Of a stretch of 64,000 bases of DNA, positions 26,749 through 30,080 are shown piece after piece (positions within the stretch are counted from its first letter, which is position 1; the number at the start of each line of letters is the position of its first letter). The stretch is from Kofleriaceae bacterium (GTDB lineage: Bacteria; Myxococcota_A; Polyangia; Haliangiales; Haliangiaceae), in assembly GCA_965215005.1 (NCBI GenBank), contig CBDCCZ010000001.1:174497-238496 (forward strand), in the 5' to 3' direction. The notes beneath the pieces are model-generated. The model had not been told where the DNA came from and did no database searches. It saw only the letters and a program-made list of their open reading frames with translations. A program made the translations under genes and the position numbers.

Positions 26749-27647
26749 GTGAGCGCACACCCGCACGAAGCTGGCTTCAGGGAGTGGTCCAAGCCGCCAA
26801 CGGCGACGGAGGGCCAGCGTTGTGCGAACGCCGAGAGCGTCGTGTACAACGCCATAAAGTCGTATCCCGCGTTCGCCAGCAGGAACATTGAGGTATTCGC
26901 TCAGGGCTCGTATCGAAACGGCACCAACGTGCGCGCTAACAGCGATGTCGATATCTGCGTGCGCTGCATGGACGTGTGCTTCAGCGATATTCCCAGCGGC
27001 GTCTCCCAGTCAGACGTTGGCCTCGTTGAGGGGACCTATACCTACTCCGAGTTCAAGAACGACGTTAAGTACGCGTTGAGGAACTATCTCGGAGCGGCTG
27101 CGGTCTCGCGCGGAAAGAAGGCCTTCGACCTTCGCGCGAATACGTACAGAGTCGACGCTGACGTCGTCCCGACCTTCGAGCATCGCCGTTATCGCGTCTA
27201 CGACGGGCAGTACTCCTATTTGTCGGGGGCCGAGCTGCATCCTGACGGAGGCGGTTTGATCGTGAATTGGCCGCACCAGAACTACAGGAATGGCACGTCC
27301 AAAAACGACGCCACAGGTACGCGATTCAAGAAGCTGGTCCGGGTGCTGAAGCGACTGCGTGACGAGATGATTGCGGCGGGGAGCGCTGCGGCGAAGCCAA
27401 TCCCCTCCTACTTGATCGAGTGTCTCGTCTGGAACGCCCCAACAGTGCTTTCGGCGGGGACCAGTACGCAGAGAACCTGCGGTCGATCCTGTTGCATCTC
27501 TATACGAACACGCAAGACGACCGCACGTGCAGGGCGTGGGGCGAAGTCAACGAGTTGAAGTATCTCTTCCAAGATGGCCAGCTCTGGACGAGGGGTGGCG
27601 TGAATAACTTCATTTCCGCGGCGTGGAGCAGCGCGGGCTTCAAATGA
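26749..27647 (+). CDS. cdnE: CBASS cGAS/DncV-like nucleotidyltransferase (CdnE-like), one apparent 1-nt deletion at ~27437-27440
   Basis: WSKPP, QGSYRNGTNV..SDVD, DADVVP, NWP..NG..KN, SYLIECLVWN. The C-terminus (EVNELKYLF..W) continues in the shifted frame to TGA 27647; adding one C to a C-run restores a ~299-aa protein. Confidence 0.88.
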
Positions 27648-27660
27648 TTCGACGGGCAGC

Positions 27661-28323
27661 ATGCTGAGACGATTGCATCTCTCTGCGGTCATCCTCGTCG
27701 CTGGCGTGTTCTGGGGCGGGATGCTCGTATTAGAAGGCGTGGCGGTGACGGGAGCGTTGTTGCGACCGTTCTCGACGGTCGTCGGCGCTTTGATGCTCGT
27801 GCTCGCCGCCTTCGACCTGTGGGGATGGCGATGGCGCCTTCTCCGCGGCTGGTTTGTTTTCCGGCCGGACCTGCGAGCTACGTGGCGCGTGGAGCTACAA
27901 AGCGACTGGAAGGGCCCAGCGACGAACACGGGCGTTGGACCAATTGTCGCGTACCTCGTCGTGCGTCAGACGTTCTCCACGCTCAGCGTCCGCATGCTAT
28001 CGGCCGAGTCGGCTTCTGAGCTCGTTGCGGCCGAGATCAACAAGGCGAGCGACGGTACGTACCGGCTGGCGGCGGTATATCGAAATGAGCCGAGGCTCAC
28101 CGTCCGTGATCGCAGTCCGATTCACTACGGCGGGTTTGTCCTCGATGTACAGGGAGATTCGGTGACCGACCTCGCGGGCCACTACTGGACCGATCGGAGC
28201 TCGCGGGGGGAGCTGCGGACGCTGGCACGGGGGACCGCGATCGCGGGCTCTTTCGTGGAGGCGCTGAAGTTACTGCCTCCGGGACCCTGTGCGGATCCAG
28301 CGACAGGGGACGCGCAGCTATGA
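27661..28323 (+). CDS. cap15: CBASS Cap15 (2TM + beta-barrel, S-2TMbeta) effector
   Basis: Two N-terminal TMs, then PDLRATW, VRQT, YRNEP, IHYG, GHYWTDR..RG motifs; immediately after the CD-NTase. Confidence 0.88.
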   Translation: MLRRLHLSAVILVAGVFWGGMLVLEGVAVTGALLRPFSTVVGALMLVLAAFDLWGWRWRLLRGWFVFRPDLRATWRVELQSDWKGPATNTGVGPIVAYLVVRQTFSTLSVRMLSAESASELVAAEINKASDGTYRLAAVYRNEPRLTVRDRSPIHYGGFVLDVQGDSVTDLAGHYWTDRSSRGELRTLARGTAIAGSFVEALKLLPPGPCADPATGDAQL

Positions 28324-30080
28324 GACGGCACTCGATCAATCTTTTTATGTGGGGCTATCAGCCGCAGTTTCGCTCTCACTTCGAGCACCTTATGGATGCG
28401 GTCATGGAGGAGCTCGGCGTGGACGACGCCTACGGAAAGTGCATGCTGGTCGGCGTCAAGGTTCCTGACGCCAATTCGGAACATGATGTCTGCATCGAAC
28501 CCGAGGATGGTCTGTGGCCGTTGGAACTGTTCGCCGGACTACCATCCGCCGTCGAGAAGCACATCAAGAACCATCCACTACAGAACACGTTTTACGGCGA
28601 CGAGCCGAGTATGCGGGACAAGCCGGAGAGCATCCGCCGCGACTCGGTACGCGAGGCGGTGCAGGAAGCACTCGGGCCTTACGACACCAAGGCTGACGTG
28701 CTCTCTTTCGCGGGGCCCCCGGCGCCTGTCGACGGCTATCACGTCGTCCCAGTGCTCCAGCTTCCTAACGCCGTCTTTGAACGCTTCCGGCCCCTTCGCG
28801 CGCCGGTGACGGAAGGCCGGATCACAGGGATTGCTGGGCTCATTCACGCGGCGGTGAAGCAAGTCCTCAGCGAGGCGCGCGACGAACTTCGGCGCCCAGA
28901 TCCCGGACGATGCATCGGCGGCAGGTCCGCGTCGGCCGCGGAGATCGTGCGGCGAGCAGCATCGGACTTCATGTACACGCCTGGCATCGCAATCGGTGAC
29001 AGGAGCTACGGCGGCCCGAACCTTTTCGAGCGGTTCAACTTGATATCGTCGCTGATGTACGAGGGCGCCGAGGGGACGGGCCGAATGCTCCTGGCCAACC
29101 TCCAGGGAGGCGCGGTCGAGGTTGCGCTGGAGTTCTCCGAACCGGTGCCTTTCCACGATCCGCGATGGTCTCGGAAGTTGCTACAGATGGCCTCCTCGGA
29201 GACGGCTTTGCTGGCCAACACAGAGAGCATTCTTGGCCTGGGGGACATCGCCAAAGGTGCCGACCCGTGGGCCACGCAGAACGCCTTCGAAGTCGAATTT
29301 CACGACCACTACCACTGGAGCCTGTCGTGCGGAGACGAGGTGCTTCTCGTGAGCAGGTTCGGTGCCCCATCCTTGCCGCGCGAAAAATTCCCAAAGGCCC
29401 GGCTTCTCGACACGTTTCAGCGACTCTTCCCCGAGGTGACTGCCGCCGATATCGGCACTTTCACAGCGTTGTTCGATGTCGCCGTGGAGCAGCGGCGTGG
29501 AAGTATGTTGGTCGTTGCGCACGACGCCAGCGAGGAGGCTACACGACTCGGTGGACAGGGGACCAGGGTCACGCCTACGAAGTTAACGCCTGAACTCTAC
29601 CGCCGCGTGAGCAATATCGACGGCACCATCCTTTTAGACCCGAAGTGCATCTGCCACGCGGTGGGGGTGATCCTCGACGGTCCGGCGAACGAGGGCTGCA
29701 CGCCGTCCAGAGGAGCTCGATATAATTCGGGCATCCGCTACGTCGCGGCGTCGTCGTCGCCGCGCCTTGCGGTCGTCGTGTCGGACGACAGCACAGTCGA
29801 CGTGATTCCCGTTCTTCGCCCGCGGATAAGTCGCAGCACCATCGAAGAACAAGTGGCGAGGCTCGAGGCTGCCACCGTCAATAATTACCACGAGGTGATC
29901 GCGTGGCTCGACAAGCACCGCTTTTACCTCGATCAATCGCTCTGCGAGCGAGCGAACGCCGCGCAACAGAAGCTCGATGGCGTGCCGAGGGAGGAGGGGG
30001 AGATAAGGGTTCTGCGGCCAGAATTTCGGCCTAACCCTCGCTGCACCGCCGACTACTTCGAGTCGGAGGGCAGCGCATGA
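28320..30080 (+). CDS. Diadenylate cyclase (DisA_N/DAC) with long N-terminal putative sensor region (DACNG/DACNH-like)
   Basis: C-terminal GSMLVV..IDGTILLD..GVILDG..RGARYNS..VVVSDD DAC-like motifs; N-terminal FMWGYQ; ATGA overlap with cap15. Confidence 0.8.
   Translation: MRRHSINLFMWGYQPQFRSHFEHLMDAVMEELGVDDAYGKCMLVGVKVPDANSEHDVCIEPEDGLWPLELFAGLPSAVEKHIKNHPLQNTFYGDEPSMRDKPESIRRDSVREAVQEALGPYDTKADVLSFAGPPAPVDGYHVVPVLQLPNAVFERFRPLRAPVTEGRITGIAGLIHAAVKQVLSEARDELRRPDPGRCIGGRSASAAEIVRRAASDFMYTPGIAIGDRSYGGPNLFERFNLISSLMYEGAEGTGRMLLANLQGGAVEVALEFSEPVPFHDPRWSRKLLQMASSETALLANTESILGLGDIAKGADPWATQNAFEVEFHDHYHWSLSCGDEVLLVSRFGAPSLPREKFPKARLLDTFQRLFPEVTAADIGTFTALFDVAVEQRRGSMLVVAHDASEEATRLGGQGTRVTPTKLTPELYRRVSNIDGTILLDPKCICHAVGVILDGPANEGCTPSRGARYNSGIRYVAASSSPRLAVVVSDDSTVDVIPVLRPRISRSTIEEQVARLEAATVNNYHEVIAWLDKHRFYLDQSLCERANAAQQKLDGVPREEGEIRVLRPEFRPNPRCTADYFESEGSA

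Follow-up and report, generated by a model that had tools for sequence, protein, structure and literature searches.

DS-2 of Escherichia coli consists of a patatin phospholipase, a cGAS-like nucleotidyltransferase (CD-NTase), and a diadenylate cyclase (DAC), here called DS-2C (DefensePredictor, Science 2026, PMC13092281). According to that source, 15 of 30 DAC homologues adjoin an antiphage signaling system based on cyclic oligonucleotides (CBASS), and defense is abolished when two predicted catalytic residues of the DAC are mutated. The primers in its Table S11 correspond to D433A and R468A, and its Table S7 gives −log(efficiency of plating) values for phage Bas1 of 4 for the wild type and of 0.18 and −0.37 for the two mutants, respectively. 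Here we describe a related operon in a 64,000-nucleotide stretch of a Kofleriaceae bacterium genome (contig CBDCCZ010000001.1, forward strand, positions 174,497 to 238,496), referred to below as the window. The locus is a DS-2/CdaG-associated CBASS in its Cap15 form, and the gene of its first cyclase, a CD-NTase, is apparently broken by a one-base deletion in an otherwise known type of three-gene antiphage operon.

Two preprints from 2026 deal with the DS-2C protein. Ragucci, Haley, and Kranzusch (bioRxiv 10.64898/2026.08.10.743927) report that three DS-2C enzymes, relatives of the one in the window, are active in vitro without any trigger; two yielded cyclic di-AMP (c-di-AMP) species by liquid chromatography with mass spectrometry, and the product is given as 3'3'-c-di-AMP. 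Nabhani et al. (bioRxiv 10.64898/2026.08.10.743972) place the protein in the CdaG family of Galperin, and the legend to their Fig. 4g shows a DACNG-like homologue beside a CD-NTase and a 2TM-beta effector. Both preprints leave open what the second cyclase does in CBASS of the DS-2 type. For the first cyclase, LpCdnE, ClCdnE, and EfCdnE are described as cyclic-dipyrimidine synthases of type I operons with Cap15, and their pyrimidine specificity is attributed to a lid-1 Asn and a C-terminal (R/Q)xW motif (Nat Commun 2023, PMC10442399). In Haloferax, a TIR-SAVED CBASS effector is reported to sense c-di-AMP made by the host DacZ (bioRxiv 10.1101/2025.06.19.660554). The initial annotation of the window knew of no characterized CBASS subtype with such a layout. 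That statement does not hold, since the layout appears in the Fig. 4g legend, is validated in its patatin form as DS-2, and has a named protein family to which the window's third gene belongs.

A DS-2-type operon in its Cap15 form

The operon was first annotated as a CdnE-like gene, a Cap15 gene, and a gene for a protein with a DAC domain (Table 1), and the three genes, their coordinates, and these assignments are borne out by matches to PADLOC, Pfam, and NCBIfam models. The product of the third gene, ds-2C, scored 685.7 bits against the NCBIfam equivalog NF053872 (DS2_3_antiphage; cut-off, 630) over profile positions 1–576 of 576, and with 586 residues and the domains DACNG, DACNH, and DAC, it has the composition and the length (~550–590 residues) of DS-2C. 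The cap15 product matched the PADLOC 2TM effector PDLC00694 (E = 3.1e-69, profile 1–204 of 208) and Pfam Cap15_CD_rec (1.9e-14), and it combines two N-terminal transmembrane (TM) helices with a beta-barrel cyclic-dinucleotide receptor; the solved YaCap15 (7n34) is only distantly similar to it (E = 0.015). The effector is thus of the Cap15/2TM-beta type and not the patatin-like phospholipase of the validated E. coli system. The first gene matched the PADLOC Cyclase model PDLC00801 at E = 6.2e-95, over profile positions 6–230 of 295 only. Against the equivalog NF053871 (DS2_2), it scored 164.3 bits, below the cut-off of 350, a score lowered by the frameshift described below; intact relatives of this CD-NTase are 21–36% identical to the patatin-type DS-2 cyclases.

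The start ATG of ds-2C overlaps the TGA stop of cap15 (ATGA, 28320–28323), as the initial annotation had noted. Its statement that cap2/3 and cap6/7/8 are lacking also stands: the PADLOC models for E1-E2 and JAB (Cap2/Cap3) and for TRIP13 and HORMA (Cap6/7/8) had no match among the 13 open reading frames (ORFs) scanned between 18660 and 37075. With a CD-NTase active site, a Cap15 effector, and none of these accessory genes, the locus has the makeup of type I CBASS, from which it departs in having three genes instead of two, the third being ds-2C.

DS-2C belongs to a large family. We found 685 homologues at E ≤ 1e-5, the top 120 of which were 57–77% identical to the query, and 524 places were confirmed in a species-representative genome collection. 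The earlier claim of a C-terminal DAC domain was right as to the fold, but the domain is divergent. Pfam DAC (PF02457) was missed in a scan of the full-length protein and was barely reached when the domain was searched alone (27.1 bits against 27, E = 3.4e-6), and a PDB sequence search with the whole 586-residue protein gave a chance match only (E = 1.2). A model of residues 351–586 (pLDDT, 91.6) had 71 Foldseek matches at E ≤ 0.001, of which the top 50 were all DisA, CdaA, DacA, or CdaM; BsCdaA (6huw_A) superposed with a root-mean-square deviation (rmsd) of 2.5 Å over 125 columns. In an hhalign alignment to the host's own CdaA, DGT paired with DGA, RYN with RHR, and SDD with SEE. All 42 homologues compared, the most distant with 32% identity, have D434, G435, R467, N469, and S470, while position 436 was T in 20, A in 16, and S in 6, and position 468 was Y in 35 and F in 7. 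The DS-2C family therefore carries DG[T/A/S] and R[Y/F]N instead of the canonical DGA and RHR motifs; members that have such motifs are nonetheless reported to be active in vitro (10.64898/2026.08.10.743927). Judging from the primers, D433 of E. coli DS-2C is the Asp of DGT and R468 the Arg of RYN; they correspond to D434 and R467 of the window protein, and both are kept.

The N-terminal part (residues 1–350) was modeled as two domains (pLDDT, 91.7; pTM, 0.91). Foldseek gave no match to this model at E ≤ 0.001, and its weak top matches were DAC domains. By VIA-align, the DACNH region (residues ~220–350) was closest to DacM (7dg0, Z = 7.5, rmsd of 3.6 over 119), MsDisA (7y0d, Z = 7.2), and TmDisA (3c1y, Z = 7.0), followed by CdaM (6.3) and CdaA (6.2), and DACNH is accordingly modeled as a DAC-like fold without the catalytic motifs. 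For DACNG (residues 9–198), the scores were middling (Z = 5–6.8 to 3kye, 6hjm, 7ckv, and others); they indicate, at the level of fold class only, that the domain is a predicted alpha/beta sandwich similar to those of Roadblock/LC7, MglB, GAF, and IclR ligand-binding domains. On the basis of these fold comparisons and of motif conservation, DS-2C would consist, in order, of a sensor-like domain, a DAC-like domain without catalytic motifs, the catalytic DAC, and a helical tail. The N-terminal region contains the invariant residues W11, Q14, E60-P61, Y247-E248, and R285-K286. With 586 residues, of which 340 form this conserved N-terminal region, the protein is not a minimal cyclase of the kind found in Panoptes-like systems, and the large conserved region with its modeled sensor-like and DAC-like folds argues for a regulated enzyme.

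The interrupted CD-NTase gene

The first gene had been read as CdnE-like, with a GTG start at 26749. Family and start are correct, but a break in its frame at 27437–27440 had been missed. Intact relatives of 299 residues align from the GTG, and for a homologue 80% identical to the window's protein, the closest solved structures were clade-E CD-NTases (7x4f, E = 1.1e-83, then 7x4a, 7x4c, 6e0m, and 6e0k), with LpCdnE, ClCdnE, and EfCdnE in the range of 1.1e-83 to 3e-59. The active site (GS...DxD...D) is present in the frame-1 part of the window's gene, and the columns of its residues G52, S53, D65, D67, and D138 were invariant in the alignment.

Four consecutive C occupy 27437–27440 in the window, whereas in relatives the Pro codon that follows GCC or GCG is complete; in a DNA alignment with four relatives (L001, L002, L005, and L007; relatives are given by locus number), this single missing base was the one gap column. 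Frame 1 extends from 26749 to 27441; beyond it, the ORF stays open in the wrong frame until a stop at 27558. The final 68 codons sit in another frame at 27441–27647 (ORF 27420–27647). A tblastn search with four intact relatives of 299–356 residues returned two high-scoring segment pairs, in frames +1 and +3, which met at WNAP/NSAF, and the second reached the normal C terminus. With the frameshift, the last 68 residues are lost, the lid-3 motif among them, so that the window lacks the intact CD-NTase of DS-2. Since the displaced end is still open and 57–71% identical to relatives, the lesion is either recent or an error. Among public sequencing runs, X1 alone contained the stretch; its contig matches the window exactly, with a word depth of 3.97, and X2 and X3 gave no cover of it. 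No RNA run was listed as containing it. Run X1 is probably the source of the assembly and hence not independent. The lesion may be a real pseudogene or, at a depth of only ~4, an assembly or sequencing error. Programmed frameshifting was judged unlikely, because the CD-NTase is encoded in a single frame at 11 of the 13 loci that share the window's architecture.

The window copy might be a decaying, non-functional remnant whose frameshift is real, which we consider unlikely and which is not exclusive of the readings weighed below. The loss of the lid-3 motif, the X1 contig with its identical sequence, and a relative in which a deletion fuses CD-NTase residues 1–190 to the C terminus of Cap15 (L003) would all fit such decay. 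Against this, cap15 and ds-2C are intact, full-length ORFs, the displaced cyclase end has stayed open and similar to its relatives, and the low depth makes a sequencing error possible. Two-gene modules of Cap15 and DS-2C, described below, also suggest that the remainder could still work.

The lid residues bear on the product of the first cyclase. The lid-1 Asn and the motif QLW, of the form (R/Q)xW, are both present in the window, QLW in the part displaced by the frameshift. All nine Cap15-type relatives likewise have the lid-1 Asn and Q[P/R]W, whereas the patatin-type DS-2 cyclases have T[S/C]W. From these residues, the product of the CdnE is predicted to be a cyclic dipyrimidine.

Role of the second cyclase

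A survey of this DAC family beside Cap15, with and without a CD-NTase, had been proposed with the initial annotation, and both arrangements exist. From the 524 genome loci, we selected the 80 best, clustered the neighbors, built local profiles, checked unclassified neighbors with PADLOC and Pfam, and counted families within 3 kb of the DAC gene. The local CD-NTase profile sees the CdnE-like family only, and the CD-NTase counts are lower bounds. Patatin with a CdnE-like CD-NTase was found at 25 loci, Cap15 with a CD-NTase at 11, Cap15 only at 7, a CD-NTase only at 2, all three at 2, and Cap15 with patatin at 2; at the remaining 31 loci, Cap15, patatin, and the CdnE-like CD-NTase were all undetected in this first pass. 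Cap15 thus stands beside DS-2C at 22 of 80 loci. Many of the 31 loci adjoin other defense genes (type I or IIG restriction-modification, BREX, DRT, Gabija-like, and Septu-like). CD-NTases of other clades were detected by PADLOC at L076 (PDLC00774) and L066 (PDLC00783). The former locus (L076:1741-7740, Chryseobacterium limigenitum) is a type II CBASS with the other-clade CD-NTase, E1-E2, a Cap15-like 2TM protein, a 147-residue ORF, and JAB, and DS-2C comes last; type I systems are thus not alone in having the DAC add-on. At L073, a TIR effector with E1-E2 and JAB lies beside DS-2C.

A quick maximum-likelihood tree (IQ-TREE) was built from 72 full-length DACs, leaving out nine partial or split rows (L016, L028, L059, L061, L062, L067, L068, L071, and L077). 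The clade that holds the window has full support and 10 DAC rows, each with CdnE and Cap15 upstream, and the 4-nucleotide overlap of cap15 and the DAC gene is kept in seven of eight same-strand relatives. This clade spans Myxococcota, Pseudomonadota, and Verrucomicrobiota, indicating that the cassette moves horizontally. A basal clade of 18 rows comes from Chloroflexota, Cyanobacteriota, Planctomycetota, Bacteroidota, and Acidobacteriota; within 3 kb, no CD-NTase, Cap15, or patatin was detected at 17 of its 18 loci (rows among L051–L080), which often lie beside other defense genes.

The window locus and its relatives amount to natural experiments on the second cyclase's role in CBASS of this type: CdnE-Cap15 pairs with and without DS-2C, Cap15 and DS-2C without a CD-NTase, and two copies with a damaged CD-NTase and an intact DAC. 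For the first kind, 401 genomes of the host's phylum were searched with the window's Cap15, and Cap15 of this type was found in 10. Seven of the loci have a CdnE-Cap15 pair and at least 1.4 kb of sequence beyond cap15. Three of these carry DS-2C (the window, L084, and L085), and four consist of exactly the pair without a DAC (L086, L088, L089, and L090). The DAC is therefore an optional addition to what is at base an ordinary type I CBASS.

For the second kind, Cap15 is directly followed by DS-2C at L015 and L027, and at L041, L044, and L045 (~6001–8374), from two Psychrobacter and one Acinetobacter (Moraxellaceae), DS-2C and a convergent Cap15 gene lie 10–14 bp apart among housekeeping genes (aminotransferase, alcohol dehydrogenase, amidase, and GreA). 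The latter three are two-gene modules of Cap15 and a large, sensor-fused DAC. No CD-NTase was detected within ±6 kb at any of these five loci by tblastn with three cyclases (E ≤ 0.01), PADLOC, or Pfam, and the neighbors of the pairs were housekeeping genes, a PIN/Maf pair, or a type I restriction-modification operon. At L027:2747-10140, the pair and a 290-residue ORF of no known family are inserted between hsdM and hsdS, which echoes the position of the window's operon beside such a restriction-modification operon. A further candidate for Cap15 and DAC only, L048, was dropped; its patatin gene abuts the contig end, as in the relative L037, which has patatin and a CD-NTase. Cap15 with DS-2C and without a CD-NTase, in three lineages, is new here, although Galperin 2023 or the supplements of the preprints may already list such modules.

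The third kind comprises the two exceptions among the 13 loci of the window's architecture, the other 11 having an intact CD-NTase. Besides the window with its frameshift, there is L003 (L003:4916-6004), from a Comamonadaceae metagenome-assembled genome, where a single ORF of 362 residues joins CD-NTase residues 1–190 to the Cap15 receptor domain. The deletion removed the end of the cyclase and the Cap15 TM helices, and the DS-2C gene behind it is intact, as it is in the window. The converse was also seen: at L062:6001-7718 and L016:6001-7770, DS-2C is split into two ORFs by apparent frameshifts; the neighboring CD-NTase gene is intact at both loci, as is the patatin gene at L062.

The window locus and its relatives reside in hosts that already use c-di-AMP. 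The genome of the window's host encodes two membrane-anchored CdaA-type DACs (CdaA_N and DAC) of 389 and 438 residues (L081:1258-2427 and L082:1042-2358), and three of the five other hosts of the window's clade have a canonical DAC. The optional nature of the DAC, the Cap15 and DS-2C pairs, the fold likenesses of DACNH and DACNG, and the two CdaA-type DACs of the host are the observations that are new here.

The reading that we favor, at slightly better than even chances and with the near-certain family assignment counted in, is that the window holds a DS-2-type CBASS whose regulated DAC supplies Cap15 with a second, positive signal. DAC catalysis requires two facing DAC domains, as in DisA and CdaA. 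In an ordinary type I pair of a clade-E CD-NTase and Cap15, with DS-2C translationally coupled behind the effector, the Roadblock/GAF-like DACNG and the DAC-like DACNH would hold the catalytic DAC in check until infection, and they appear suited to keeping it unpaired until a trigger is sensed. The DS-2C product would then be a second positive input, beside the CD-NTase signal, to membrane disruption by Cap15. Cap15 is found with just a CD-NTase, with just DS-2C, or in the company of both; either cyclase is therefore probably able to drive such an effector, and the simplest model would be two independent sensor cyclases with one membrane effector. The Haloferax TIR-SAVED protein offers a precedent for a CBASS effector that reads c-di-AMP made by a DAC. 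If the frameshift is real, the window copy would work, if at all, as a pair of Cap15 and DS-2C.

Several points weigh against this reading. A single Cap15 pocket would need to accept both a dipyrimidine and c-di-AMP, because the CdnE partner carries the (R/Q)xW motif predicted to select pyrimidine donors. An effector triggered by ordinary 3'3'-c-di-AMP would risk killing its own host, given the two CdaA-type DACs here and the canonical DACs of the related hosts. The DS-2C enzymes described so far in 10.64898/2026.08.10.743927 are active in vitro without a trigger, and the defense data in PMC13092281 concern the patatin version in E. coli, not the Cap15 version. With its CD-NTase frameshifted, the window copy may be inactive. 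DS-2C also occurs with patatin (25/80), in type II CBASS (L076), and with no CBASS gene nearby (31/80, first pass), and this variety of partners fits a role independent of effector type.

We consider a stronger version of the favored reading less likely than not. Cap15 and DS-2C would by themselves be a self-sufficient DAC-based signaling defense, an analogue of CBASS in which the fold of the sensor cyclase is that of a DAC and not of a CD-NTase, and the CD-NTase would be a dispensable second input. The Cap15 proteins of this clade would accept a cyclic dipyrimidine as well as c-di-AMP, yet ignore the housekeeping c-di-AMP pool of the host, and the window would be a natural CD-NTase-dead version that still defends.

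The initial annotation had proposed that the DAC acts as a second trigger, a brake, or a decoy or guard. The same options are left open by the authors of the two 2026 preprints, and the brake and guard options are now weakened, because the D433A and R468A strains of E. coli lose defense yet grow as lawns (PMC13092281). As a Panoptes-like guard, DS-2C would constitutively make c-di-AMP that holds Cap15 off, and phage sponges or nucleases directed against the CdnE signal would deplete c-di-AMP as well and release Cap15. We regard this as unlikely. PanDA/Panoptoo pair a DAC and a 2TM-beta effector in exactly this way, and EcPanE binds c-di-AMP with a Kd of 7.7 µM, as reported in 10.64898/2026.08.10.743927 and 10.64898/2026.08.10.743972; in vitro activity without a trigger (the former preprint) and the existence of two-gene Cap15 and DS-2C modules would also suit a guard. 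By contrast, the E. coli mutants simply lost defense, with a patatin as the effector in that case, and PanS is minimal at ~150 residues, as opposed to the ~340 conserved N-terminal residues of DS-2C. Moreover, the split DAC genes of L062 and L016 stand beside intact patatin or CD-NTase genes, and c-di-AMP would be available anyway from the CdaA enzymes of the host.

Alternatively, DS-2C could act on or with the CD-NTase and not on the effector, through a complex, allosteric activation, or a relay in either direction, as an accessory module like Cap2/3 or Cap6-8. The variety of partners speaks for this, in that DS-2C is combined with patatin (25/80), Cap15 (22/80), or the TIR effector of L073, and with CD-NTases of the CdnE-like, PDLC00774 (L076), and PDLC00783 (L066) types. 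Between Cap15-type and patatin-type operons, moreover, identity is higher among the DACs (39–51%) than among the CD-NTases (21–36%). Such a role is nevertheless improbable, as modules of Cap15 and DS-2C exist without a CD-NTase in three lineages and many DS-2C homologues stand alone.

We know of no native c-di-AMP signaling in E. coli. A c-di-AMP burst that arrests growth through native host receptors, independently of Cap15 and the CD-NTase, would suit the 31 of 80 homologues without the three CBASS families within 3 kb, often beside other defense genes, the basal clade (17 of 18 without these families), and the canonical DACs, and so presumably c-di-AMP receptors, of the host and three of five related hosts, but it is highly improbable in view of DS-2 working in E. 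coli (PMC13092281) and of the conserved translational coupling to cap15, which points to a dedicated effector.

Taken together, the comparative patterns narrow the models to a DAC that is modular and probably a regulated signal source able to partner Cap15 alone, and the relatives point to tractable constructs for asking whether one effector reads two signals.

Genomic setting and comparison with known systems

The coordinates of the operon, the DS-2C domains, and the surrounding features are given in Table 1. The three CBASS genes directly follow a complete type I restriction-modification operon, with which they form a small defense island; its edge may be marked by an IS3-type transposase gene between the restriction-modification operon and an RHS locus. 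The RHS locus is a bacterial polymorphic toxin locus. Upstream of its RHS-repeat gene lies a 1481-residue ORF without a Pfam family, and downstream, a 199-residue ORF that overlaps the RHS stop may encode an immunity protein. On the other side of the operon, an ECF-like sigma factor and a secreted-type protein with PKD and leishmanolysin (M8) domains, both encoded on the minus strand, appear to have no link to the CBASS genes. A promoter and terminator scan of 25800–30900 gave nothing above the shuffled expectation, and no tRNA genes were found in the 64-kb window.

Table 1. Features of the window, in order of position
Feature	Position	Strand	Size or residues	Remarks
Polymorphic toxin locus	4740-15729			
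RHS-repeat protein gene	9212-15133		1973 aa	C-terminal Tox-REase-7 nuclease toxin domain
IS3-type transposase gene	16916-17770			rve integrase core and HTH_21
hsdM	18660-21356	+	898 aa	Type I restriction-modification
hsdS	21343-22605	+	420 aa	Type I restriction-modification
hsdR	22550-25912	+	1120 aa	Type I restriction-modification
YgjP-like metallopeptidase gene	25909-26628	+		Start overlaps hsdR stop
CdnE-type CD-NTase gene	26749-27647	+		Interrupted by 1-nt deletion
Cap15-type 2TM-beta effector gene	27661-28323	+	220 aa	Intact
ds-2C	28320-30080	+	586 aa	Intact; DS-2C/CdaG-family sensor-fused diadenylate cyclase
DACNG domain	28347-28973	+	aa 10-218	Pfam PF21752, 1.8e-52
DACNH domain	29019-29330	+	aa 234-337	Pfam PF21750, 5.4e-24
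Catalytic DAC core	29487-29789	+	aa 390-490	D434-G435-T436, R467-Y468-N469; then C-terminal helical region to aa 586
ECF-like sigma factor gene	30243-30794	-		Region 4 only detected
PKD/M8 protein gene	33162-35915	-	917 aa	Secreted type

Among the known systems, the Haloferax TIR-SAVED CBASS, as described in its preprint, is alike in that its effector can respond to the product of a DAC in addition to that of its CD-NTase. However, its DAC is a housekeeping enzyme outside the operon, and the effector is TIR-SAVED, not Cap15. PanDA/Panoptoo, according to the two 2026 preprints, share with the window a DAC-fold cyclase gene that adjoins a gene for a Cap15-like 2TM-beta effector, and a c-di-AMP product, which for the window is assigned by family. 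They differ in that PanS (~150 residues) has no regulatory domain and makes a constitutive "off" signal, whereas DS-2C has its conserved 340-residue N-terminal region and lies in a three-gene operon with a CD-NTase; in E. coli, loss of DS-2C abolishes defense without reported toxicity. The type I CBASS of LpCdnE, ClCdnE, and EfCdnE contain the nearest solved cyclases and have the same lid-1 Asn, (R/Q)xW motif, and Cap15 partner, and the window adds to this arrangement a ds-2C gene coupled to cap15.

E. coli DS-2 resembles the window in its DAC. Both loci encode the same DS-2C family (39–51% DAC identity between Cap15-type and patatin-type operons) with the DGT and RYN motifs, including the two residues required for defense, and in both the DAC gene closes an operon that also encodes a CD-NTase and an effector that damages membranes. 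They differ in the effector (Cap15 versus patatin phospholipase), in the gene order (cyclase-effector-DAC versus effector-cyclase-DAC), and in the CD-NTase, which in the window is of a different CdnE subclade, has QxW and not T[SC]W at lid-3, and is frameshifted. Compared with the CdaG family and its DACNG-like homologues beside CBASS, the window shows the same DACNG-DACNH-DAC architecture and no architectural difference; it differs from the CdaG-associated CBASS in its host and in its damaged CD-NTase.

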